Assembly: GCA_017609795.1 (NCBI GenBank)
Contig: JAFCDH010000001.1
Span: 1-52,934 of the forward strand
Source of the DNA: Candidatus Pacearchaeota archaeon
GTDB taxonomy: Archaea; Nanobdellota; Nanobdellia; Pacearchaeales; GW2011-AR1
Direction: 5' to 3'
DNA length: 52,934 bases
In this document: one piece after another, positions 5,654 through 47,749 of the stretch
Position numbering within the stretch: position 1 is the stretch's first letter
Layout: every line of letters begins with the position of its first letter
Made by a program: the position numbers and the translations under genes
The notes under the pieces: model-generated
Told to the model about the DNA's origin: nothing
Seen by the model: only the letters and a program-made list of their open reading frames with translations
The model's database searches: none

Positions 5654-6084
5654 AAACAATAAATTGGAATTTTAAATTGAAGAATTGTATTATTTGTAAT
5701 AATATTTTTAAACCAACTAATGGAAAACAAATAACTTGTTGTAAGGAATGTGAGGAAAAAAGAAAACTAAATTATAATAAGAAATATAACAAAAATAATC
5801 CTGAAATTGTTGCTAAATCTGTTAGAGAACATTATCAAAGAAATAAAAAAAAGAAATGTGAATATCAAATAAAATATAATCAAAATCATAAAGATGTTAT
5901 TAAATTAAGAAATGATACAAGAGAATATATTAGGAAAAATAAGATAAATTTTGTTGGTCTTTGTTTAGATTGTGGGAGATTATGTAAAAGAGAAATACAT
6001 CATATAACTCCAACCATTCAAGGATTTATTTTAATCTGTCAAGATTGCCATTACAAAAGACATAATAAAAGGAGTAGAAGATGA
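5650..6084 (+). CDS. HNH endonuclease with N-terminal zinc ribbon
   Basis: CIICNN..CCKECEE; C-terminal CLDCGR..EIHHITP..CQDCHYKRHNK. Confidence 0.6.
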   Translation: MKTINWNFKLKNCIICNNIFKPTNGKQITCCKECEEKRKLNYNKKYNKNNPEIVAKSVREHYQRNKKKKCEYQIKYNQNHKDVIKLRNDTREYIRKNKINFVGLCLDCGRLCKREIHHITPTIQGFILICQDCHYKRHNKRSRR

Positions 6085-6153
6085 GTTTTAAATCAATAAA
6101 AGAACTAAAAGCAAGGATTGAGGGAACTTCTGAAAATTAGGTAAATAACTGAA

Positions 6154-6375
6154 ATGGTATACAAAATTAAAGAAGTAAAAAATATGTATCAGTTCGTTGG
6201 AACAAGAGAAGTAGAATTACAAGAATATGATTTTGGAATAGTTTTTCCAGAGTTTTGTTTTGTTTGGAAGGATGGAAAAAAGATAAATAAGAAAATAATA
6301 AGGGAGTTATTGAAAATGAAAGATGAAGTAGAATTAGAAGATAAGAAAAGATTAAAGGAGAAGTCAAATGGTTAA
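6154..6375 (+). CDS. hypothetical protein
   Basis: Track ORF; ends KEKSNG inside a 17-nt junction repeat. Confidence 0.5.
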   Translation: MVYKIKEVKNMYQFVGTREVELQEYDFGIVFPEFCFVWKDGKKINKKIIRELLKMKDEVELEDKKRLKEKSNG

Positions 6376-6571
6376 AAACAATAAAGGTTGTGGAAGAATG
6401 TTAGCAATATCAGAAGATAGAGATTGTGGGGCATTTTGTCCTTTTTGTAAAGAAATTCATTATTGTGTTCTTTGTGGAGGGGGATATGAATTACATAGAA
6501 TTGCACTAAATATGATGGCTAAAGAAATGAAGAAGAAGAAAACTTCCCAAAAACAGAGGAAAATGAAATGA
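6368..6571 (+). CDS. Cys-rich zinc-binding small protein
   Basis: CGRM..CGAFCPFCKE..CVLCGG; ends SQKQRKMK, as does 8187..8378. Confidence 0.5.
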   Translation: MVKNNKGCGRMLAISEDRDCGAFCPFCKEIHYCVLCGGGYELHRIALNMMAKEMKKKKTSQKQRKMK

Positions 6572-6723
6572 CAATTAAAAACTTAGAACAAATGAGCAAA
6601 AGAATATGTAAAGGATGTAAAAAAGAAATAAGAATTGTAATAATTGAAAACCATAAAGCACCTTTACAAATATATCCAAAAGAAAGATTAAATTATTGTG
6701 ATGAATGTTGGGAGAAAAGATGA
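6568..6723 (+). CDS. zinc-ribbon ORF (51 aa)
   Basis: Hand-translated; CKGC...CDEC; ATGA coupling at both ends. Confidence 0.4.
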   Translation: MTIKNLEQMSKRICKGCKKEIRIVIIENHKAPLQIYPKERLNYCDECWEKR

Positions 6724-6854
6724 ACAAACATTGCATAAGGTGTGGAAGAAAATGTAAATCACAAATGGAAGAAGATGCTGAGCTTTGTGAATATCATTTG
6801 AGAAATAAATTAATAGATGATGTTAATAATGCAATATCAAGAATTTCAATATGA
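6720..6854 (+). CDS. Cys-rich ORF (44 aa)
   Basis: Hand-translated; CIRCGRKC...C..H. Confidence 0.35.
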   Translation: MNKHCIRCGRKCKSQMEEDAELCEYHLRNKLIDDVNNAISRISI

Positions 6855-6926
6855 ATAACAAAAACAAATAAACTATGACAAAAACTAAAACTTTAAATAA
6901 AAATTTAGGGCTTATTTGCCCTGTAT

Positions 6927-7000
6927 GGCAGAGGGCCTGGAAACCTACCAGTGAGCCCGCGGGTGTAAACTGGGAAGCAGGTTCGAATCCTGCCTCTGCT
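6927..7000 (+). tRNA. tRNA-like element (non-canonical; tRNA gene, tRNA-derived att fragment or TLS)
   Basis: 7-bp acceptor pairing GGCAGAG/CTCTGCT; perfect T-arm GCAGG-TTCGAAT-CCTGC (6977-6993). D arm and anticodon arm do not fold canonically: CCAGT/ACTGG stem with a 16-nt loop. Confidence 0.4.
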
Positions 7001-7026
7001 AATTGTGAGTAAACACAATAATAAAT

Positions 7027-7116
7027 CCAGTGTGAGTCTGTGCAAGCTCAGACACTCAGGAAAGACTGGGATTGAGGGGAGTGATTAGATATTAACTGTA
7101 TATGGATGCTCCCCTC
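7027..7116 (+). ncRNA. GC-rich structured RNA hairpins downstream of the tRNA-like element
   Basis: CCAGT(7027)-TGA-GTCTG-loop-CAGAC-TCA-ACTGG(7069) hairpin; GAGGGGAG(7074-7081)/CTCCCCTC(7109-7116) 8-bp stem; no ORF. Confidence 0.3.
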
Positions 7117-7132
7117 ATTAAATTCAAATAAA

Positions 7133-7279
7133 ATGGGAACTTTAAAAGAACAAATTGAAGAAGAAATAAAATTCTTATGGGCAATAAGACAAATTTGTTT
7201 CAATAAAAGAATTTTAAAGAAAATACAATTTAGAGAGAAGATACTAAAAAATAAATTAAAGGAGTGTAGTTTAAAATAA
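7133..7279 (+). CDS. small ORF (48 aa)
   Basis: Hand-translated; stop 2 nt before ATG 7282. Confidence 0.35.
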   Translation: MGTLKEQIEEEIKFLWAIRQICFNKRILKKIQFREKILKNKLKECSLK

Positions 7280-7281
7280 AA

Positions 7282-7560
7282 ATGGGAAATGGTTTATTTA
7301 TAACAGATAAGGAAGCAATTAGAATTATCAGAAAAGAGAATAGAGAATTAGAAAGTGAAGTTATTAAATTAAAAAAGGAAATTAAGAATTTAAAGAAAAC
7401 AAGTGTTTATTGTGAAACTTGTAAAAAACATATTGGATTTTATTTAAAAAAAGGAGGATATGAACTTTTGAATGGGGTAATTCAGCATGGACAAGGAAAA
7501 GGAAAAAAAGAATTATTAAGTTTTTGTTCAAGAAAATGTGAGGAGGAAAATAAAAAATGA
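7282..7560 (+). CDS. coiled-coil + zinc-ribbon protein
   Basis: CETCKK...CSRKCEE. Confidence 0.55.
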   Translation: MGNGLFITDKEAIRIIRKENRELESEVIKLKKEIKNLKKTSVYCETCKKHIGFYLKKGGYELLNGVIQHGQGKGKKELLSFCSRKCEEENKK

Positions 7561-7703
7561 TAGAAATTAGTTTTAATAATGTTGGAATGATTATCTTTAG
7601 TTGTAATCATGTTAAAGGATATAATAAAGGTAATGGAAAAAGATTATGTTCAAAATGTAGAAAGAAGATTATTAATAAATTAAATAGTTCGCTTTGTAGG
7701 TAA
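7557..7703 (+). CDS. Cys-containing ORF (48 aa)
   Basis: Hand-translated; ATGA overlap with the previous gene. Confidence 0.35.
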   Translation: MIEISFNNVGMIIFSCNHVKGYNKGNGKRLCSKCRKKIINKLNSSLCR

Positions 7704-7705
7704 AT

Positions 7706-8194
7706 ATGGGAAATAATGAAGATAAATGTTGTAGATGTAAGGAAAAAAGTTTAATGCAAGTGATGTTGCCAATAGCAGAAGTTACTGAAACTGGTAGGGT
7801 TGTTTTCCCACAAGAAACAGAACAACAATCAGTTCAAATACCAGTTCCTTTATGTTTTAAATGTATGCAATTTGCAAGTGAAGGTTGGATTAATTTAATG
7901 AAAGTTCCTAATAAAGAGAAATATCAATTAATAGAATGTTGTGATAGGAATAGTGATTTTTCTTTAAGAAAAATTGAGGAAAGATATAAAAGTGGGGAAT
8001 TGAAAAAAGACATAAAAGAAACTTTAGAAAAGTTGGGAAAAACAAAAGAACAAATTAAAAAACAGAAGATGAAAAATACTCCTTTTAGGATTTCAATAAT
8101 TGTTGATGAGATTATGGATAATTTTAAAGATTTTGAGAAAAAGGTTAAGGAAAAGAGTTCCGAAAACATAGGAAAGGAGAAGTCAAATGGATAA
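7706..8194 (+). CDS. hypothetical Cys-cluster protein
   Basis: CCRCKE...CFKC; ends KEKSNG in the junction repeat. Confidence 0.55.
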   Translation: MGNNEDKCCRCKEKSLMQVMLPIAEVTETGRVVFPQETEQQSVQIPVPLCFKCMQFASEGWINLMKVPNKEKYQLIECCDRNSDFSLRKIEERYKSGELKKDIKETLEKLGKTKEQIKKQKMKNTPFRISIIVDEIMDNFKDFEKKVKEKSSENIGKEKSNG

Positions 8195-12080: not shown

Positions 12081-14948
12081 TTAATTTGGAGTTAATCCTC
12101 CTTCTAATGCTTTTATTCTTGCTGTTAAATCATCAATATCTTGTTTTTGTTCCTGAATTACTGATGTTAAAATAGTTAAATATTCATTTCTTGAAAGTTC
12201 AACCGTTTCTAATTCATCTGTAATTTCAGTATAATCAATTACATTTACACATAAAGTATCATTTACTAATTTTCCATTAACCATTTCTGTTAAAACTTCA
12301 CACTCTTTTTTATAATGAATAATTGTTTTATTTGTTGTTAGTTGTGGAAATATTTTTACTAAATCTTCTGCAATTATTCCAATTTCATTAGTTCTACTTT
12401 CATCTATTCTATCATATATTCTTGGTTCTATATCATAAAATCCTTTAGTATCATCAGAAGTAATATCCCTAATATTTTCTTTATATCTTTCTGATGATGT
12501 TTCATAAACTAATCTCCCATCTGATTGTATTCTTAAATTTCTTCCAACTGAGGTATTAGCATCATTATAAACTAAGGGCATATAAACCCCACCATCTTCA
12601 TCTATCTTAACACCTAATGTTGCTGCCTGACCACCATTAGGAACAGTATAAAATTCCATTTTCATTCCAAAACCTTTATCAAAATCAGAAATATAATAAT
12701 GGTTTTCAGTAGCCATTACTTTAATTGCAGAATAAGTAGCATAACCTATCCCAGAAGTCCACGCTCTAAAATAAAATCTTCCAACATTATCTCCTGATAA
12801 TAAATGAGAAGGAGATTCAAGTGTTCCTCTGCTTCTTTTTGTGTTCCATATTGGTGAAGCAGTAGTGTCCCGAGCATCAGTTATAATATATTGATGAGCA
12901 TTTAAAGAGTGAGTGATATGGTCAGCATCTGTTGTTAAAACCATGCCTCCTGTTCTTGTAATATCCCCTGTTCCTGCAATATCTCCAATTACTGCAACAG
13001 GCTTATTTATAATAATAGAAGGACTTCCTGTATCTATTGTGGTAATTCCAGCATCACTTACTGAAAAACTTATAAATTTTGTAGCATCATAACCAATTTT
13101 AAATTGTGGTTCTGTTGTAGAAAGAATTGTTGTAGCTCCTGCTCTTATATTTCTTGTTACATTTAAATTAGTAAAATTCCCCCAATCAACATTAGTAATA
13201 TTATTTCCACCTAAATCTAAATTTCCATTCCAAGTTAATTCTCCAATATATGCAGTTCCTGTTACAGTCAAGGTTGTAAAATTCCCATAAGTTGAATTGA
13301 TATTTGATGCAAAAACACCTCCACCAATATTTGCATCATCACCAACAATTAAATTATTTTGAACATCTAAATTTGCCTTAGCATTGCTTCCTCCTTGTTC
13401 ATTTCTTATTTTAAGTGTTCTTGCATTATCAGTATAAAATTCAATTTCTGCATCACCACTTACAAAGAACCATTCAGGAGAGTTTATCCATTCGATTACA
13501 GTATCTCCTCCATCAATAGCAATTCTATTGTCATTATCACCAAAAGCCCCAATTTTTGCTGTACCATCACCTATTAAAATATTAGATGATACTCCCATAT
13601 CAACATCATTATCAAACACAACACCATGCCCTTCTTCATTCTCTGCTATGTGGTCTACATAAAGATTTGTTGCATTTGTTAAATTATATACTCCAAGATT
13701 TAAATTTCCTGCCATATTTCTTGAACCATCAGCTAATAAATATTGTGGATGGTCATCATCTGAAAGTCCTGCTAAATCTCCATGGTCTGTAACAATATTA
13801 AAACTTTCTTCACTTATTCCAGGTCTTACATCTTGCCAAACAGCATTACTAAAATCAGTATCTCCTTGTTGATAAACTACTGTTGTTAATTTTGGAGTTT
13901 GTGCTAAGCCTTCAGGAATAGGAGATAATGCTCCTGCTTCTGCTTGTGCTTTTGTATTGTAATAAGTAGTTGGATAAACCCAACCTAATTGATGATGTGC
14001 ATAAATAAAATATGCTTTTGTCCATTTATTTGCAGGAATATTATCTAAATCATTTCCATCATCATATTGTATTGTATCTATTTCTGCATTAGAATCATTA
14101 GTCCAATCTCCTCCTGAATGAAATAATCTTATTAAAGGGAGTGTTCTTGAATTTATTGCTGTTGGATTTCTTTCTTCAATTCCATCTTTAATTAATTTTC
14201 CAGCATCCATTGAAACATCAAGGGAGTTTGTAGCATCTGTATCTTCACTAACACTCATTCCATTTATTATTCTATTTGGAAAAGCAATTCTTAATCCTCT
14301 ACGAGTATCTGACATTGAAGCATCAATTAAACTCATTTCCCTATATCCTGCAATATTTCCATCCCAATTTGAAAATTTTGCAATTAATATTTCATCACCT
14401 GAACTTGAACTTGTTTGCAATTCTAAAGTAGAAGTTCCTGTATATTTGAGATAATTAACTTGGTCACTTACTAAAGTTCCTGAACCCGCATCTGTTTTAA
14501 CAAAATCTTCAATTGAAAAATCATAAACTTCTCCTGCTGTCCATTCAACATCTAATCCTCCTGTAAGTGAAACTGTAATTGTTTCGGATACTCCACGATT
14601 AATTATATGATTAAAAGTATCTTTGATTGAATGTCCATCATGGTCTATTATGTGAGTTGAGTTTAATTGAACTCCTTTAACCTGAAAACCTGTTGCATTA
14701 ATATAATTTGCTGAAAAATTGTAAATTCCAATACCTATATCTTGATTTGAGTTAGAACCATTTATTGAAAGATAATTAGAAAACATCGAAGTAATACCAT
14801 CTAAAATGTATGTAACACTTTGATTACCCCAATAAATTCCTGTTGTTTTATTTAATTGGTCTGTTGGATGAAATTGTATATTTGAAGAAGCTAAAGTTAA
14901 TGGAATTATCAATAAGATTAATGCAAACATTAGATATTTTTTTATCAT
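12081..14948 (-). CDS. fibre/spike protein with C-terminal peptidase-S74 intramolecular chaperone domain
   Basis: Signal peptide; G/N/T-rich beta-helix-like repeats; TSSERYKENIRDI...IGIIAEDL then coiled coil at the C-terminus. Confidence 0.8.
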   Translation of the reverse strand: MIKKYLMFALILLIIPLTLASSNIQFHPTDQLNKTTGIYWGNQSVTYILDGITSMFSNYLSINGSNSNQDIGIGIYNFSANYINATGFQVKGVQLNSTHIIDHDGHSIKDTFNHIINRGVSETITVSLTGGLDVEWTAGEVYDFSIEDFVKTDAGSGTLVSDQVNYLKYTGTSTLELQTSSSSGDEILIAKFSNWDGNIAGYREMSLIDASMSDTRRGLRIAFPNRIINGMSVSEDTDATNSLDVSMDAGKLIKDGIEERNPTAINSRTLPLIRLFHSGGDWTNDSNAEIDTIQYDDGNDLDNIPANKWTKAYFIYAHHQLGWVYPTTYYNTKAQAEAGALSPIPEGLAQTPKLTTVVYQQGDTDFSNAVWQDVRPGISEESFNIVTDHGDLAGLSDDDHPQYLLADGSRNMAGNLNLGVYNLTNATNLYVDHIAENEEGHGVVFDNDVDMGVSSNILIGDGTAKIGAFGDNDNRIAIDGGDTVIEWINSPEWFFVSGDAEIEFYTDNARTLKIRNEQGGSNAKANLDVQNNLIVGDDANIGGGVFASNINSTYGNFTTLTVTGTAYIGELTWNGNLDLGGNNITNVDWGNFTNLNVTRNIRAGATTILSTTEPQFKIGYDATKFISFSVSDAGITTIDTGSPSIIINKPVAVIGDIAGTGDITRTGGMVLTTDADHITHSLNAHQYIITDARDTTASPIWNTKRSRGTLESPSHLLSGDNVGRFYFRAWTSGIGYATYSAIKVMATENHYYISDFDKGFGMKMEFYTVPNGGQAATLGVKIDEDGGVYMPLVYNDANTSVGRNLRIQSDGRLVYETSSERYKENIRDITSDDTKGFYDIEPRIYDRIDESRTNEIGIIAEDLVKIFPQLTTNKTIIHYKKECEVLTEMVNGKLVNDTLCVNVIDYTEITDELETVELSRNEYLTILTSVIQEQKQDIDDLTARIKALEGGLTPN

Positions 14949-36410: not shown

Positions 36411-36515
36411 ATAAATTTAAATACCTTAATATCTTAAATAAATTGTCTCCAAGGGGTTTTTTAACTCTTTTTGACAATCAACAACCAACATTTGGACAAC
36501 ATTCAAAATTCAAAA

Positions 36516-38261
36516 ATGGAGCAAAATTTTACTAGCCAGTATCTCAACTTTTTAAAAAAAGAAGGATTGATAGATGAAATAATAAGTGGGGCAACAAACA
36601 ACCCAGTAGATACAATTACCTTTTCTAAAACTCAAGATTCTTTTTCTTTTCCACAACCAAATTTAATTTATAGTAAAAATAATAGAGAAGAAATTGAACC
36701 TTATATTATAGAGTTAGATTACCAAGCCAAAAAATTAAAAGAATTAGGATTAGAAATCATTTCAAGAAGAATAAAAAAGAAATGGAAAAAGGGGCAGACT
36801 GTTGAATATAAATTAAGAAAAAAATCTTTTTTTGATGATGAATACATAGAAATCTTAAAAGGGATTCCTGCTAATCACAAGGTAAGAATTGACAAAGCAA
36901 ATGGAAAAGCTAAATTAGTTGGTCCTAATTGCAGAAACAAACTAAACATAAAAGGAGAAACAGATTGGATTTATTTTCAAGGACAAAAAAGAGAATATAA
37001 AAAAAATATAGAAGATGATTTTTCTCTGCCAGACATTTCTTTAACTAAACCAAAACCATTAAAGATGGCAATAAAAGATATTCCTATTATGGTTGGATTG
37101 GATGGAAGCATAGTCTGTATCCCCCACAGACACGAGCCAAATAATATTGCTGTTGTTGGAAGCAAGGGGACAGGAAAAACCCTAATACTTAATAGGCTTG
37201 CTTCAGAAATTCTTTGGAATTGGAAAGAAGCTCCCATAATTATAAATGACATCCAGCAAGAATGTGAGGTTTGGAGTGAGCCTTTAGAAAATATAGAATG
37301 GGCTAATCACTTAAAACTTATAGATGAAAAACCTTTTGCTTCTCCAATTATTTATATTTATCCTCACACTTCAGATTTAAAATTAGATTATAATGAATTA
37401 AAAAGCCAGATAAATTTTGTTGAAACAACACTTCCTTTTTCAGAAGTAATCAATAAAGCGGAAATTTATTTGAAATTAGAAAAAGACAAGGGAACAATAA
37501 GATATATTTGGGGGATGAAAGAAGAGCTATTGGGATGTGAAACCCCGGGGGAAGTTACTAGTTTAATCGAAGAGAAATATGACCAAAGGAAATATGAGAC
37601 TATGAAAAACAAAATGGTTGTTAGTTTTGAGAATGTCTTTAATGATGAAATCCTTAATATAACTAATAAAGAATATCCTTGTTTTTTAGAAAGTGGTGAC
37701 TTTAAAGGAAATCCTTTTGTTGTCTTAGCTAAGATTGGATTGATTCCTTGTTTTGAAACTTATGATTTAAACAACAAAAGATATATGCCAGAAGTGATAA
37801 GCTATCATTTAGAAAGTATTTTTGAAAGTAAATTTAGAGGAAAAATTTTAGAAGGGAAAACTGTCTATATAATATTTGATGAATTAACTCACATTTGTTC
37901 TGATGATAATAAAAATTCTGCTTATGATTCTGTCTGTAAATTATATACAAGGGGAAGAAAATTAGGAATTGGAAATGTTTGTGCAACACAAAACTATTCT
38001 AAGATTCCAAGAAAGGTCAAAAATAATATTGACTTTGTTTTTGCTTTTAAACATTCAAGTGAAGAAGAAGTAACCTTAATTAAAAAAGATTATGATTTAA
38101 AAGATATAGATAAAGATGAGATATTTAATTTAGAAAGTTTTGAGGTTTTAGGAATTACCAACGAATATTTTAATTGTTATAAAAATGGGGAAATAAATAA
38201 AAAAAAAGTTGTTCAGGGAAAAATAATTTTTCCAATGAGCAACCACATGGCGCCGTTATAA
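36516..38261 (+). CDS. HerA/FtsK/VirB4-superfamily P-loop ATPase
   Basis: Track ORF from TTG 36471; first ATG at 36516; Walker A VVGSKGTGKT, Walker B VYIIFDELTH, RGRKLGIGNVCATQNYSKIP. Confidence 0.75.
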   Translation: MEQNFTSQYLNFLKKEGLIDEIISGATNNPVDTITFSKTQDSFSFPQPNLIYSKNNREEIEPYIIELDYQAKKLKELGLEIISRRIKKKWKKGQTVEYKLRKKSFFDDEYIEILKGIPANHKVRIDKANGKAKLVGPNCRNKLNIKGETDWIYFQGQKREYKKNIEDDFSLPDISLTKPKPLKMAIKDIPIMVGLDGSIVCIPHRHEPNNIAVVGSKGTGKTLILNRLASEILWNWKEAPIIINDIQQECEVWSEPLENIEWANHLKLIDEKPFASPIIYIYPHTSDLKLDYNELKSQINFVETTLPFSEVINKAEIYLKLEKDKGTIRYIWGMKEELLGCETPGEVTSLIEEKYDQRKYETMKNKMVVSFENVFNDEILNITNKEYPCFLESGDFKGNPFVVLAKIGLIPCFETYDLNNKRYMPEVISYHLESIFESKFRGKILEGKTVYIIFDELTHICSDDNKNSAYDSVCKLYTRGRKLGIGNVCATQNYSKIPRKVKNNIDFVFAFKHSSEEEVTLIKKDYDLKDIDKDEIFNLESFEVLGITNEYFNCYKNGEINKKKVVQGKIIFPMSNHMAPL

Positions 38262-40627: not shown

Positions 40628-41179
40628 ATGGCAGATATTGAAACAGAACAAGAGTTTGAAGAAGTAAAAAAACGTAGGACTGGGGGGTTTAATCAACTTA
40701 TTAAAAATACTAAGGGCTGGGTTTTTGTTGTAATTATATTTTTAATCATGTTATTTGTTTGGACTTTAAGAGACCCTGAAATGAAAAACCAAGCAATACT
40801 TATGGGGGGCGTTATTGTTGCTTTAGTTTTCTTCTTTACAAAAAAAGCAGAATCAGCAGGATTGATTTCTGAAGATGTTGCAAAAAAAATTGCTGTCAAA
40901 GGATTGGAAGATAAAAAAGAAGAATATCATATTTCTTCTGGCTCAGATATAGCCCCAACTAATTTTTGTAGATTAGGGAAAAATAGTTTTGGAGATTATG
41001 ATGAATGGCATATTGGAATTAAAGTTGAAAGTGAATTTGGAAAAATAGATTATTGGAGAATTGATATTGATTGTTATACTGGAGGGATTACAGGAATTGT
41101 TGAAACACCAACAGGATTTACTGGAGATGAAATTCCTAATGTAAAATATGTAACTCCAAAATATTATACAGAAGAATGA
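40628..41179 (+). CDS. membrane-anchored protein (weak PepSY-like C-terminus)
   Basis: 2 TM; WRIDIDCYTGGITGIVE. Confidence 0.5.
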   Translation: MADIETEQEFEEVKKRRTGGFNQLIKNTKGWVFVVIIFLIMLFVWTLRDPEMKNQAILMGGVIVALVFFFTKKAESAGLISEDVAKKIAVKGLEDKKEEYHISSGSDIAPTNFCRLGKNSFGDYDEWHIGIKVESEFGKIDYWRIDIDCYTGGITGIVETPTGFTGDEIPNVKYVTPKYYTEE

Positions 41180-42102
41180 TTATTATATTTTCCACACCTA
41201 GAACCCAATGTTCCAATTAATTTAGAATCTTGATAAATCTCATTCAATTCACAATTATTTTCACAATCTTCACAATTTCTTATTTTAGTTTCAAAATCAT
41301 GATTAATCAAATTAAATCCTTTAAATCTTGTCTGTTTAATTCTAGCATTTTTAATCATTAAAGCAATTCCAATTGCCCCCATAACATCACAATAATCTGG
41401 AACAATAACTTCATAATCTAATTGTTCTTCAAAAGCTTTTACAATAGCTTTATTTTTAGCAGTTGCTCCTTGATAAATAAATGGTGGTTTTAAATCAATT
41501 CCTTTTGCCATAGTCAAATAATTATTAACTAATCCTCTGCATACCCCCATTAAAATATCTGATTTATTTTGACCTGAATTTAATTTACTAACAACTGTAG
41601 ATTGCATAAATACCCCACACTTTGTTGGAAAGTCTATTTTGTTGTAACTTTGTAATGCTAAATCTCCTACATCTTCAATTTTAATTCCCATACGGGTTGC
41701 TATGGCTTCTAAAGAACTTCCTGTTCCTGCTGAACAAATCATATTCATTCTGAAGTCTTCTAAAATCCCATTATTTAAAACCATTAATTTTGAATCTTCT
41801 CCACCAATATCAAAAATAGTTCTAACATTTGGATAATACTTTAAGGTGCCTATGGTATGTGCAAGGATTTCTGTTTTAATTAAATCTGCTCCAACAAGAA
41901 GCCCAGCAAAATTTCTTCCTGAACCAGTAACACCAACCCCCTTAATCCCCTCACAAACAACGTGCTCTAAACCCTTTTGTATTGTTTCTATAAGTCCTTG
42001 ATTTCTTAAATAAATTGAATTAATAACTTTATCTTTTTCATTAACTATAGCTAATTTTACTGATACGCTTCCACAATCAATTCCTAAATATTTATTTCCC
42101 AT
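41164..42102 (-). CDS. BcrA/BadF/HgdC-type ATPase (radical-enzyme activase family, ASKHA fold)
   Basis: LGIDCGSVSVKLA phosphate-1; DIGGEDSK; cluster Cys in MICSAGTGS and PTKCGVF; C-terminal CEDCENNC..C. Confidence 0.8.
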   Translation of the reverse strand: MGNKYLGIDCGSVSVKLAIVNEKDKVINSIYLRNQGLIETIQKGLEHVVCEGIKGVGVTGSGRNFAGLLVGADLIKTEILAHTIGTLKYYPNVRTIFDIGGEDSKLMVLNNGILEDFRMNMICSAGTGSSLEAIATRMGIKIEDVGDLALQSYNKIDFPTKCGVFMQSTVVSKLNSGQNKSDILMGVCRGLVNNYLTMAKGIDLKPPFIYQGATAKNKAIVKAFEEQLDYEVIVPDYCDVMGAIGIALMIKNARIKQTRFKGFNLINHDFETKIRNCEDCENNCELNEIYQDSKLIGTLGSRCGKYNNHSSV

Positions 42103-43003
42103 TTTTTACCTTAATCAATTCAATAAAAGTTTCAAGACGAGTTTCCAAATTAGCTTCTGAATTATTTTCATCTATTGGAATTCTTAAAAGAGGAGTCTTA
42201 TTTTCTTGACAAATATGATTAATAAATGGTTCAACAGTGGTTTCTGGCATACAACTTAAAGGCAAGATATGAATTATTCCATTAACCCCTCTATCAATTA
42301 ATTCTAAAAGATGAGAAACATTTTCTATTCCATGCCCCCCAAGTTTTCCATTAAAATATTTTTCAGCTTGTCTTTCATATTTTGTTTTTCTATTAATAAT
42401 AGGTAAAAAATTATGATTTAAAAAATCTGAAATTGTAACAGCATTATAAGGATTAGCAACATATTTTTTTATCTTTTCTTCAATATTTTGATTTATAGTT
42501 TCATCAATTGCTGAATAAATCTCTCCAACAATTCCAATGTTTGGTTTTTCTTTACTCCAAATTCTTTTATTATCATGAGCTTTAATATCCTTAATTAAAT
42601 TATAAAAGGTTTTAATAATTTGATAATAAGATTTTCCACTAAACTTTTTCATTAATTTCAAAGCGTTTTTTCTATTAATCCCATATAATTCAAAATCTTC
42701 ATAGCCAAGATTTTTTAAAGTAAATTCCTGAATCTTATGATAATGTTTGAGCCGACATTGCCCAAGAGAATCGTACATTAATAAAACATTTGCTCCATTA
42801 TCTAAAGCTTCCATAAAATTTCCAAGTGTAACTTTATAAGGAAAGCACATCATATCTGATGAATGTCTTACTCCAAGATTATAAGTTTTTTTAGTTGTTT
42901 TGGGTGGAAGCTGAATACTTAATCCTAATTTTTCTAAATTTCTCTTTATAAGTTTTGTATATTCTCTCCCGATGTATGGAAAACTAATTATTCTTTTTTC
43001 CAT
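42092..43003 (-). CDS. DUF2229-like partner of CoA-enzyme activases
   Basis: FPYIGREY..LPP..G...SSDMMCFPYK..GQCRL; 11-nt overlap with the activase gene. Confidence 0.6.
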   Translation of the reverse strand: MEKRIISFPYIGREYTKLIKRNLEKLGLSIQLPPKTTKKTYNLGVRHSSDMMCFPYKVTLGNFMEALDNGANVLLMYDSLGQCRLKHYHKIQEFTLKNLGYEDFELYGINRKNALKLMKKFSGKSYYQIIKTFYNLIKDIKAHDNKRIWSKEKPNIGIVGEIYSAIDETINQNIEEKIKKYVANPYNAVTISDFLNHNFLPIINRKTKYERQAEKYFNGKLGGHGIENVSHLLELIDRGVNGIIHILPLSCMPETTVEPFINHICQENKTPLLRIPIDENNSEANLETRLETFIELIKVKNGK

Positions 43004-43514
43004 TTCTTTTTTTCTTTAATCTTTTAAATATAATTATGACTAAGGTAATTAAAATTATAAGACCAATTACTATACAAAGTGCAAGCCAATTAATATCTTT
43101 TTCAAGTTGTTCAATTAATTCATCTGGTAATGGAATAGGTTGAGTTGTTTGGTTAGGTGTTGTTTCATTAATTTCTACTTCTTTTTTCTTTCTCCAAGGA
43201 TAAGTATAATATCCTCCATCACCAGGTTCTTCTTCACTACCCCCACTACTATAATATTCTTCAACAACTTCTTTTCCCTTATAACCATAAAATACTATCT
43301 CAAAACTTCCAACTTTATAATCTAAAGGGATAATTATTGTTGCTATTAAATTGTTTACTGAAATATTTAAAGAACTTGTATTCCCCTCAATTGTGTAATT
43401 TGAATATGATTCAAATTCATTTAAATTTACTTCTATAGAATCTCCTGGATAATAAGCACTAACTAAATTTATTAAATTTAATATTAATATTATAGTTATT
43501 ATTTGTATTTTCAT
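42984..43514 (-). CDS. secreted protein with C-terminal TM anchor
   Basis: Signal peptide, TM near the C-terminus, basic tail. Confidence 0.55.
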   Translation of the reverse strand: MKIQIITIILILNLINLVSAYYPGDSIEVNLNEFESYSNYTIEGNTSSLNISVNNLIATIIIPLDYKVGSFEIVFYGYKGKEVVEEYYSSGGSEEEPGDGGYYTYPWRKKKEVEINETTPNQTTQPIPLPDELIEQLEKDINWLALCIVIGLIILITLVIIIFKRLKKKRNGKKNN

Positions 43515-43566
43515 TTGTTTCTCCTCAATAAATAAAAAAATAAAAAAATAAAAAATTTAAATCTTT

Positions 43567-44379
43567 TTATGCAGTCTTTGTGTATGTTATCAAATCTGTT
43601 TCAAATAAGTAAGTTTCTGGTTCACTCCAACTTGAAAGTGTTGCTTTTGCTTCTTCCTCATTACCTGGAATTAACCATAACTTAGCACCATTACAAACTT
43701 TTGCATTTGGATTAAATCCATTATCACAATAATCATCTCCTACATCTATTTCTAATGGTAAACTATCAATCTCATTTGAACCTTCAGATAATACAATTAC
43801 ATTAGCAATATTAGTTGCAAAATCATCACCTTCAGTATTTGGATAATATATTAAAGTATACCCTTCTGGAATTCCTGTTGCAATAAAATTAGTTCCAGTT
43901 ACACTATATGTAATTTCAGCAGTTTCACCAATATGTTCCCAAGTACTTGTATCTTTTTGAGTAAAGTATGCTATTGCAATTATGTCCCCTTCTCCTCTAG
44001 ATAAAATCACATTTCCACTAACTTCTCCAATTACACTTTCTGAGTCATAACATAATTCAATAGTTATTGTATTTATACCATTAGATAAGGTTTCTGTTCT
44101 TGGCATATCTGTTATAGCATAAGTAACTCCATTTGGATTTGAAGTCTCAACCCAATTTAATTGGATTGGTAAGTCACTATTTGCATCATTAGTAACATCA
44201 AATGATTTCTCAACACAATCTCCAACCACTCCTGAAAAATCTAATTCAACTGTTTCAGTAGACAAAGCTTCACTTACTGTAAATGTAACATTAATAGTTG
44301 CAAAATATATTGCTACTGCACTAACTAAAACAACAGCTAACAAAGGTAAAATTAATCCATATAATAATTTCTTTTTCAT
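43567..44379 (-). CDS. secreted beta-rich protein (weak TasA/camelysin-like N-terminus)
   Basis: Signal peptide then AIYFATINVTFTVSEAL. Confidence 0.55.
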   Translation of the reverse strand: MKKKLLYGLILPLLAVVLVSAVAIYFATINVTFTVSEALSTETVELDFSGVVGDCVEKSFDVTNDANSDLPIQLNWVETSNPNGVTYAITDMPRTETLSNGINTITIELCYDSESVIGEVSGNVILSRGEGDIIAIAYFTQKDTSTWEHIGETAEITYSVTGTNFIATGIPEGYTLIYYPNTEGDDFATNIANVIVLSEGSNEIDSLPLEIDVGDDYCDNGFNPNAKVCNGAKLWLIPGNEEEAKATLSSWSEPETYLFETDLITYTKTA

Positions 44380-44886: not shown

Positions 44887-45072
44887 TTAATCTTTGCTCT
44901 TTTGTTTTTTTGTTCTTCTTTTAAATTTTCTAATTATTTCTAAATCTTTTAATGTAATTATTTTCCCACAATCTTTACATTTTATAGTTGGAGTAGATTT
45001 TTTTCCATGAGCATAATTCCTCTTTAATCTTCTATGATTACATCTTCTCCCAAATTTATTATTAAATTTCAT
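44887..45072 (-). CDS. basic zinc-ribbon-like small protein
   Basis: RRCNHRR...CKDCGK. Confidence 0.45.
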   Translation of the reverse strand: MKFNNKFGRRCNHRRLKRNYAHGKKSTPTIKCKDCGKIITLKDLEIIRKFKRRTKKQKSKD

Positions 45073-45377
45073 TACTTTTTCTTTAGTATAATATCTAATG
45101 TCGAGACTTTTGTTTTTTTATCTGTTTCTTTTCCATCTTTGTCTTTCTTGTTAAACTCTTCACTTCCGGTCTTTATGCTTTCTGTTTCTACTTCATCTTT
45201 CATAAATCTCTGAGTTATGATTTGTTCTACATCAATTGCTGCGTTCATGTTTTTCCCTCTTGCTGAAATCTGAACTTTTTCCTGTCCTTCTTTGAACTGC
45301 ATCTGAACTGCATTAACATATGCCATCAATGGTTTGCTTCCTATAAAAACAATGTTGTCTTTTTTTTCTTCAGTCAT
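45072..45377 (-). CDS. albA: Alba chromatin protein (Sac10b family)
   Basis: IGSKPLMAYV, ISARGKNMNAAIDVEQIITQRF and KVSTLDIILKKK align with the Sso10b hallmarks. Confidence 0.9.
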   Translation of the reverse strand: MTEEKKDNIVFIGSKPLMAYVNAVQMQFKEGQEKVQISARGKNMNAAIDVEQIITQRFMKDEVETESIKTGSEEFNKKDKDGKETDKKTKVSTLDIILKKK

Positions 45378-46753: not shown

Positions 46754-47749
46754 TTAAAACATTTTATTTAATTCTTTATAAATCTCTTCTGAAGTAAATT
46801 TAACTATCCTTTTTCTTCCACCACCCCTTCCAAGATTTTTATGATAAGTTTCTATTACAGAATATTTTTCAAAAGTATTTAATAATTGAGAAATCCTAGC
46901 CTTAGAATAAAATTTCATTTTCTTTTCCAGATTCTCTGCAGTGGTTTCATTTTTCCAATCACAAGACCCTATAATATATCTTAAAAATTCTCTTTCTGTT
47001 TCATTAATATCATTAACAAAATCAAACCAATCTTGTTTTAACATTTGTTTATAAACATTGTCTATAAAGCTATGGGTAAAATTTCTTTTTTGAATACATT
47101 TAAGGGCTATATGGATTAATACTCTTGCAGAACCTTGCTGTCCTGCTATTGCAGAAATATAATTTAAAACCCCATCCTCAATCTTAGGTATCTTTGTTTT
47201 TATTTGTTTAATCCTTGAAATTAAAATATCTTTTAATTCTATAGAATTATAAGCAGGAAGACTTACTTTTTCAAAAAACAAAGTCTTTCTAGCATCTACA
47301 GGCATCTCAGAAATTATATTTCTTTTCATTGTTATAATAATTATTGGAATCATTGTGTTTCTATAAATTGTATTTAAATTATTAAACAATTGATTGACCC
47401 TGCTTATTTTATCTATCTCATCTATAATTAAAATGATTGGTTCTTCCTTAATCTTTTCTATTGTTCTTTTTAATAATTCCTCATTAGTTTTTATATTAAA
47501 ATTAAAGATTTTTTTTAAGGTCTTGTAAGGTGTTTGTGTTTCTAAACCAGAAACATAAATTGCATTATCTTGTTCTTCCAAAATCTTTTTTATAATGGTT
47601 GTTTTTCCACTCCCTGTAACACCTAATATTGCTAAATTAGTCCCACATTTATATTCTTTAAAATTAATAAAAACCTCCCTTATAACCTTCATTTGTTTGT
47701 CTCTATGTAAAATTTCTTTGGGTATATAAAAGTCTGATAATTCTAACAT
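46754..47749 (-). CDS. cdc6: Orc1/Cdc6 AAA+ replication initiator
   Basis: Walker A GVTGSGKTT, Walker B LIIDEIDK, C-terminal winged-helix-like region; adjacent ORB repeats. Confidence 0.85.
   Translation of the reverse strand: MLELSDFYIPKEILHRDKQMKVIREVFINFKEYKCGTNLAILGVTGSGKTTIIKKILEEQDNAIYVSGLETQTPYKTLKKIFNFNIKTNEELLKRTIEKIKEEPIILIIDEIDKISRVNQLFNNLNTIYRNTMIPIIIITMKRNIISEMPVDARKTLFFEKVSLPAYNSIELKDILISRIKQIKTKIPKIEDGVLNYISAIAGQQGSARVLIHIALKCIQKRNFTHSFIDNVYKQMLKQDWFDFVNDINETEREFLRYIIGSCDWKNETTAENLEKKMKFYSKARISQLLNTFEKYSVIETYHKNLGRGGGRKRIVKFTSEEIYKELNKMF

Follow-up and report, generated by a model that had tools for sequence, protein, structure and literature searches.

The window analysed here, a stretch of 52,934 bp, is the entire contig C78 of a Candidatus Pacearchaeota archaeon, whose assembly comprises 883 kb in 79 contigs at ~27% GC and is estimated to be ~83% complete. 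At positions 41164-44379 it carries four co-directional genes, all on the minus strand. Two of them, ORF A and ORF B, encode an activase and an Fe-S subunit of the superfamily of 2-hydroxyacyl-CoA dehydratases (HAD) and benzoyl-CoA reductases (BCR), an enzyme class that is certain, and together they form the pair with which this study is concerned. The locus is laid out as follows.

41164..42102, minus strand: ORF A, 312 aa, a putative single-domain ATP-dependent activase of the ASKHA fold with a C-terminal four-Cys tail.
42092..43003, minus strand: ORF B, 303 aa, a compact Fe-S subunit of the HAD/BCR superfamily with a DUF2229 N-terminal part and an HGD-D C-terminal part.
42092..42102, minus strand: overlap of the ORF B stop with the ORF A start, 11 nt, ATGGGAAATAA.
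42984..43514, minus strand: a 176-aa protein, signal-like at its N-terminus and membrane-anchored at its C-terminus.
43515..43566, minus strand: an intergenic stretch, rich in A and T, that carries a GAGGAG ribosome-binding site 5' of the 176-aa gene, read directly from the sequence.
43567..44379, minus strand: a 270-aa protein with an N-terminal hydrophobic segment, local context only.

The 11-nt overlap implies that ORF B and ORF A are translationally coupled, and the stop of the 176-aa gene in turn overlaps the ORF B start by 20 nt; both overlaps had been described in an earlier note on this DNA and are as described there. The 176-aa gene is probably co-transcribed with ORF B, and the intergenic stretch, with its putative promoter, likely marks the start of a transcription unit that runs from the 176-aa gene through ORF B to ORF A. 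Hydrophobic segments occupy residues 1-24 and 137-168 of the 176-aa protein and the N-terminus of the 270-aa protein, in agreement with the secreted neighbours reported previously; a Pfam scan matched the 270-aa protein to no family. Unlike these two neighbours, ORF A and ORF B are predicted to be soluble.

ORF A matches PF01869 (BcrAD_BadFG) at 9.5e-41 and 140.5 bits (cut-off 31.5) and the acyl-CoA dehydratase activase model TIGR00241 at 183.8 bits (cut-off 125.4). Among solved structures it matches HgdC (1hux, 1.2e-33) and also HadI (4eht), MbdQ and MbdP. In the alignment with 1hux, C123 of ORF A (CSAGTG) lies over CAAGTG of HgdC and C162 (KCGVF) over TCTVF, with a spacing of 39 residues in both proteins. 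In HgdC the inter-subunit [4Fe-4S] cluster is bridged by two cysteines per monomer, Cys127 and Cys166; their counterparts in ORF A are C123 and C162. The ASKHA phosphate motifs GIDCGS and DIGGEDSK likewise align with those of HgdC, from which ATP hydrolysis coupled to electron transfer is predicted for ORF A. Judged by these model matches and motifs, ORF A is an ATP-dependent activase of the HgdC/BcrA type; the earlier assignment of the gene to the BcrA/BadF/HgdC type, with the two cluster-Cys contexts CSAGTGS and KCGVF, is thereby borne out. The C-terminal Cys knot that had also been pointed out corresponds to a four-Cys tail (C278-x2-C281-x3-C285...C304), which is kept in 16 of the 16 ORF A homologs examined; the chains of HgdC and HadI stop short of this region. 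Within the tail region (41164-41330, residues 258-312 of ORF A) the homologs show two forms: CxxCxxxC...C in the window, in candidate phyla radiation (CPR) bacteria, Sumerlaeia, Eubacteriales, Monoglobus and the canonical Act2 domain, and CxxxC...CxxC in Planctomycetota, in the Pacearchaeota locus L022 and in L006. One metal ligand of the tail appears to have shifted from the start to the end of the motif between subclades. The tail may bind Zn or Fe-S and might serve in docking or as a relay.

ORF B matches PF09989 (DUF2229) in its N-terminal part (2.5e-12, 47.4 bits, cut-off 29.4), as the earlier note had supposed, and PF06050 (HGD-D) in its C-terminal half (1.2e-9, 38.7 bits, cut-off 28.4), a match that had gone unremarked. 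By sequence alone, its similarity to solved HAD subunits is weak (E 0.18). In a sequence/profile search of the PDB only the last ~65 residues reach HadC and the double-cubane-cluster protein (DCCP), with C251 aligned to the C-terminal motif Cys of both, so that a fold search was needed to place the protein. An AlphaFold2 model built on a 24-homolog alignment (pLDDT 88.1, pTM 0.85) gave 14 significant Foldseek matches in the PDB (E<=0.001), all of them BzdO, DCCP, HadB/C or MbdO/N chains and all at a probability of 1.00. BzdO is the top structural match and DCCP chains are among the top ones; for 8s02_B, 7yzm_A, 3o3m_B/D and 9g87_B, TMq ranges from 0.45 to 0.59. Across the 24 homologs the invariant columns include C53, C83, C251 and C265, and among the non-Cys residues H224, H245, E254, E258, R274, D278 and R289. 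An Fe-S cluster is predicted from the four invariant cysteines. Taken together, the HGD-D match, the fold matches confined to HAD/BCR/DCCP chains and the invariant cysteines describe one activase plus one compact Fe-S subunit: ORF B is the electron-accepting catalytic partner of ORF A, and the earlier claim that no partner of the HgdAB/BcrBC type is present has to be rejected.

No other candidate for this role was found. A dehydratase-like partner elsewhere on the contig, for which the earlier note had advised looking, is absent, and the 883-kb assembly holds no second HGD-D/DUF2229 or BcrAD gene. Nor does a canonical dehydratase or reductase operon lie just outside the window, which is the whole contig, or anywhere in the assembly. 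The alpha/beta pair of HAD/BCR subunits is missing, ORF B being the sole HGD-D/DUF2229 gene in the assembly, and from this single gene we conclude that ORF B probably forms a homodimer. NCBIfam contains no model for ORF B or for the PlsA and Ger enzymes, to which the following comparison leads.

Ger, the glycerol ester reductase of Thermotoga maritima (Tmari_0479), and the plasmalogen synthase PlsA/PlsR of Clostridium perfringens (CPE1194/1195) have PF01869, PF09989 and PF06050 in common with the pair, and all belong to the same anaerobic, ATP-driven, Fe-S radical enzyme type, in the case of the pair by homology. As canonical comparator we used an uncharacterised 1457-aa protein from a metagenome-assembled genome of Pirellulales, not Ger or PlsA itself. 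It contains two PF01869 domains, a full DUF2229 (PF09989) and HGD-D (PF06050), which is the published architecture of Ger and PlsA(/PlsR) (PMC13159169; PMC12838417). Residues 5-307 of ORF A align with Act2, the second activase domain of this protein, at 36% identity (1e-55), and the alignment takes in the Cys tail (NCEDCENNCEL...GSRCGKYN versus TCSSCSNACEI...GSRCDRYN). ORF B aligns end to end with Red2, the last reductase domain and PlsR equivalent, in BLAST (9e-18) and in hhalign (99.2% probability, residues 1032-1446 of the 1457-aa protein), and its C53, C83 and C251 are matched by Red2 cysteines. By way of this comparator, ORF A resembles the Act2 and ORF B, over its full length, the Red2 of the Ger/PlsA architecture. 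On these alignments, the case for placing the pair in the DUF2229 (PlsA/PlsR-Ger) branch of the HAD/BCR superfamily is strong. The function, which the earlier note had left open, is less open than that, both genes being full-length homologs of Act2 and Red2.

The pair differs from the characterised Ger/PlsA enzymes in its layout. These are arranged as Act1-Act2-Red1-Red2 in ~1400 aa, whereas the pair consists of one activase and one reductase on two proteins with ~615 aa in all; unlike them, it lies in an archaeal mobile-element context, and its ORF B is ~100 residues shorter than Red2. Uncharacterised three-gene operons of Clostridia and some DPANN archaea encode a Red1-like protein of ~330 aa, a Red2-like protein of ~360-410 aa and an activase of ~330 aa. 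In Monoglobus pectinilyticus (WP_102365312, WP_102365311 and WP_102365310) these proteins have 329, 407 and 330 aa, and the activase carries the same tail; it is 42% identical to ORF A, and the Red2-like subunit is 26% identical to ORF B. Such operons possess two different reductase subunits, which implies a heterodimer, whereas the window has only one. The Clostridial three-gene operon is an intermediate layout, and the pair is the smallest known layout of the PlsA/Ger family.

Similar comparisons apply to the rest of the superfamily. HgdC and HadI have the activase core and both cluster cysteines of ORF A, to which ORF A adds the four-Cys tail. HgdAB and HadBC have the fold and the C-terminal Cys motif of ORF B, which is 70-100 residues shorter, and their sequence similarity to it is confined to the last ~65 residues; their alpha/beta pair and their CoA-transferase context are both absent from the window. 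Among the class I benzoyl-CoA reductases (BcrABCD, BzdNOPQ and MbdONPQ), BzdO is the top fold match to ORF B, and MbdQ and MbdP match ORF A, but the four-subunit organisation is missing in the window and the equivalog models score far below their cut-offs. Our literature search found no description of a two-gene, one-plus-one form. Ger homologs have been reported in Woesearchaeota and Pacearchaeota, but there a hit had to cover 30% or more of a ~1400-aa query (PMC13159169), a filter that proteins of ~310 aa would fail, and PlsA-like homologs with one or no activation domain have been noted, with unclear roles (PMC13274423).

In a survey of gene neighbourhoods, of the kind that the earlier note had proposed, ORF B is directly followed by ORF A in 16 of the 17 loci, which are spread over Planctomycetota, Pacearchaeota, a CPR bacterium, Sumerlaeia, Eubacteriales and low-GC contigs. 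Clustering of the neighbourhoods found no further gene common to all 17 loci, and the window's secreted proteins came out as singletons. Since nothing but the two genes is conserved, the pair is a self-sufficient module, a reading that B+A fusions of ~620 aa also favour. The operon with secreted proteins that had been described does exist as a local arrangement; it is not conserved with the pair, so that the linkage is a peculiarity of this contig without functional weight.

In Planctomycetota the pair lies within a recurrent cluster (L016-L025, e.g. L020:8147-20032), which comprises a divergent sigma-54 activator, a B12-radical-SAM (S-adenosylmethionine) protein, a tetratricopeptide repeat protein, a BipL-like hydrolase, a coiled-coil protein of 365 aa and an Aas acyltransferase/ligase of 1150 aa. 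The alpha/beta hydrolase is nearest to phospholipase BipL (1.2e-73, below the cut-off of that model), and the Aas-type acyl-ACP-phospholipid O-acyltransferase scores 1313 bits, above the cut-off. This cluster, which appears to be undescribed so far, looks like a regulated phospholipid-remodelling locus. Furthermore, the canonical 1457-aa gene of the Pirellulales genome stands between an ortholog of this sigma-54 activator (61-65% identity) and one of this hydrolase (55-60% identity). That the pair and a fused gene of the PlsA/Ger type have flanks in common among phospholipid-remodelling genes is the main argument for a lipid ester substrate. One low-GC, ORFan-rich locus with the pair, L037, encodes a 606-aa B12-binding radical-SAM/DUF4070 protein at 5973-7793, 1.2 kb upstream; with only ~25% identity between this protein and the Planctomycetota copies, a B12-radical-SAM protein was rejected as a conserved partner.

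We propose that ORF B and ORF A constitute a minimal two-component ester reductase of the PlsA/Ger type, probably acting on glycerolipids, with the substrate read from the gene context; the proposal seems to us about equally likely to prove right or wrong. By analogy with HgdC, an ORF A dimer (A2) would bind a single [4Fe-4S] cluster through the Cys123 and Cys162 of both monomers, and this cluster would be reduced by ferredoxin. Contigs C36 and C65 of the assembly encode several small ferredoxin-like ORFs of the 2x[4Fe-4S] kind that could feed the activase. Upon ATP hydrolysis, ORF A would pass an electron of low potential on to the Fe-S cluster of ORF B, for which C53, C83 and C251, with or without C265, are the predicted ligands. 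The ORF B homodimer (B2) would replace the Red1/Red2 pair of the fused enzymes. From the ORF B cluster the electron would pass to the substrate carbonyl and yield a ketyl radical. Both the oligomeric states and the electron path are modelled on HAD/BCR enzymology. The most likely substrate would be the ester carbonyl of a glycerolipid, from which the pair would make a vinyl-ether or alkyl-ether bond in the way that PlsA/PlsR and Ger do with an sn-1 acyl ester; for the glycerolipid substrate taken alone, we regard the case as evenly balanced. In this archaeon the accessory pair on its mobile-element-like contig would act on scavenged lipids.

Several points weigh against this proposal. The lipid product is predicted from context, the two-gene form has no characterised member, and the comparator through which the branch was assigned is itself uncharacterised. 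ORF B is only ~20-23% identical to Red2 and lacks ~100 residues of helical insert. The fused two-activase BBD..H architecture is absent, the window having a single PF01869 domain (312 aa) and a single DUF2229/HGD-D unit (303 aa). In one Pirellulales genome the minimal pair and the canonical gene are both present, and the two could differ in specificity. The lipid-gene neighbourhood is restricted to Planctomycetota and is not seen in the DPANN or CPR loci; in DPANN, CPR and low-GC contigs the pair is surrounded by ORFans, methyltransferases and HNH genes. The 83%-complete assembly contains no gene for a PlsC-type acyltransferase (PF01553), a geranylgeranylglyceryl phosphate synthase (PF01884) or a UbiA prenyltransferase (PF01040), so the host probably scavenges its lipids. 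Archaeal membrane lipids are already ether-linked and have no ester carbonyl, and the lipid reading therefore needs the ester lipids of a partner, which is its main weakness here.

Part of this evidence is shared by an alternative in which the same machinery acts on a substrate other than membrane lipids, namely another ester, a thioester or a small unsaturated molecule of the archaeon or its element. We consider this possible, if on the unlikely side. It would accord with a host assembly devoid of ester-lipid and archaeal lipid-core synthesis genes, with the DPANN, CPR and low-GC loci that have no lipid-gene neighbours, with the genome that holds both the pair and the canonical gene, and with the unclear roles reported for additional PlsA-like homologs (PMC13274423). 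However, every tie of the pair that is closer than the superfamily level leads to the DUF2229 (PlsA/Ger) branch, the pair and the canonical fused gene stand in the same phospholipid-remodelling flanks, and no CoA-transferase or CoA-ligase adjoins the pair outside Planctomycetota.

The remaining alternatives bear on the contig and on the enzyme type. Contig C78 looks accessory and mobile-element-like. Among 34 large contigs it ranks second in the deviation of its tetranucleotide profile, although its GC is host-like; it has no tRNA genes, and none of its 40-odd scanned proteins falls in a housekeeping family. A PHROGs and Pfam scan of at least 30 other contig proteins gave few matches. The features recognised on the contig are listed here.

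46754-47749: Orc1/Cdc6.
45072-45377, same strand as the pair: Alba.
36471-38261: FtsK/HerA/A32-like (terminase-like) ATPase, absent from 60 relatives.
12081-14948: 955-aa protein with a Peptidase_S74 domain, an endosialidase-chaperone domain typical of tail fibres.
Also on the contig: 1269-aa protein with a Big_13 domain, large Ig-like.
Also on the contig: CBM96-domain protein.
Also on the contig: HNH nucleases, DNA methyltransferases, an S24 peptidase, a PD-(D/E)XK (Cas4-like) nuclease and many ORFans.

Terminal repeats are absent from the contig, none of its proteins scanned with PHROGs and Pfam was recognised as a capsid protein, and a scan of IMG/VR with the ORF B profile and the FtsK/HerA ATPase of the contig returned no relatives. 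A viral nature of the contig, like a role of the pair as an auxiliary gene of a mobile element, is possible but unproven. Among GenBank phages only a match of 20% identity was obtained, and among the PLSDB plasmids only the Monoglobus three-gene operon matched.

The close form of the pair occurs in 1 of 37 genomes of the genus and in 5 of 401 of the phylum. The nearest homologs of ORF B (60-68% identity) are found on further contigs of low GC, full of small ORFans, methyltransferases and HNH genes; one of them, L006, adjoins housekeeping genes of a relative of this archaeon. In the tree, the low-GC clade of the window stands beside a clade of Planctomycetota plus Pacearchaeota, with CPR, Sumerlaeia and Eubacteriales outside, a topology consistent with inter-domain transfer. 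It is conceivable that such a transfer delivered the pair merely as passenger cargo of a mobile element, with no or a marginal role in the archaeal host, and the patchy spread, the accessory contig and the nesting of the low-GC clade among bacterial sequences would agree with this. We nevertheless consider it improbable, given that both ORFs are intact and translationally coupled and retain every invariant residue, and that related low-GC contigs hold the same pair at 57-68% identity, which speaks for long-term purifying selection. The GC of the pair is as low as that of the contig, and the transfer was therefore not recent.

A small-molecule reductase of the DCCP/DCCP-R type, suggested by the DCCP chains among the top structural matches and by a weak match to NF040772, is very improbable. 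The NF040772 match reaches only 19 bits, where the cut-off is 350. The [8Fe-9S] cluster of DCCP, described by Jeoung and Dobbek in 2018, is reportedly held by six cysteines, and ORF B has only four invariant ones. The DCCP-R activase 7yyl_E (243 aa) ends before the region of the ORF A Cys tail and scores below HgdC. Hardly any credence can be given to an orphan activase that lacks a catalytic partner and lies beside a domain of unknown role, which the missing separate HgdAB or BcrBC genes and the weak sequence likeness of ORF B to solved HAD subunits might suggest, since ORF B passes PF06050, its model matches only catalytic subunits of the HAD/BCR/DCCP group, its invariant cysteines include the one aligned with HadC and DCCP, and it is homologous to Red2 from end to end.

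We return to the minimal ester reductase of the PlsA/Ger type. To our knowledge, no enzymes other than PlsA/PlsR and Ger are known to lead anaerobically from ester to ether lipids, and these enzymes matter for the "lipid divide" and for the origin of the branched glycerol dialkyl glycerol tetraether (brGDGT) proxies. A two-protein version would lend itself far more easily to structural and mechanistic work than the 1400-residue multi-domain enzymes, for which the mechanism and the determinants of Ger versus PlsA activity are unresolved (PMC13274423). The pair may also resemble the pre-duplication ancestor of the fused enzymes. Its occurrence in lipid-auxotrophic DPANN and CPR lineages and on mobile-element-like contigs raises the question whether episymbionts or their elements remodel scavenged lipids. 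Going one step further, we can imagine that a virus or plasmid of DPANN archaea carries the pair as an auxiliary, ancestral-looking homodimeric PlsA/Ger reductase, which remodels host-scavenged lipids or the membrane of the element itself; this is speculative and, in our judgement, rather unlikely. If true, two small proteins with ~615 residues in all would suffice for radical ether-bond formation, a trait that would then travel between Bacteria and Archaea on mobile elements. The annotation of such proteins, now labelled "hypothetical", "sugar kinase/HSP70/actin superfamily" or "2-hydroxyacyl-CoA dehydratase", is also corrected.

A hidden Markov model search of the whole library recovered 2038 relatives, whose layouts include stand-alone proteins (~310 aa), fusions of B with A (~620 aa), fusions of tandem Red domains (~730 aa) and intein-bearing versions. 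LAGLIDADG-type inteins interrupt several ORF B homologs (P0121, P0128 and P0133) at differing positions, with forms of 715, 684 and 666 aa among them, and the Pacearchaeota copy at L030:8876-10598 gives a split alignment as well. Inteins are unusual in genes for metabolic Fe-S enzymes, and their presence here is consistent with frequent mobility. The 364-aa homolog P0020 continues beyond ORF B into the initial residues of the activase (…AAYLGIDCGSVGIKLALINEDR), which may reflect a natural fusion of B and A comparable to the ~620-aa forms or else a frameshift in the gene call. Three related DPANN genomes (G010, G033 and G041; loci L008-L015) have more distant DUF2229/HGD-D genes, whose open frames measure ~300-390 aa; in G033 and G041 they stand in tandem pairs, the heterodimeric split form and not the minimal pair. 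Directly upstream of the Pacearchaeota copy on L030 lies an Alba gene (L030:8581-8874) whose product is 51% identical to the Alba of the window, which in turn is encoded 2 kb upstream of the pair on the same strand. The proximity of Alba to the pair in both places may be a remnant of shared synteny.

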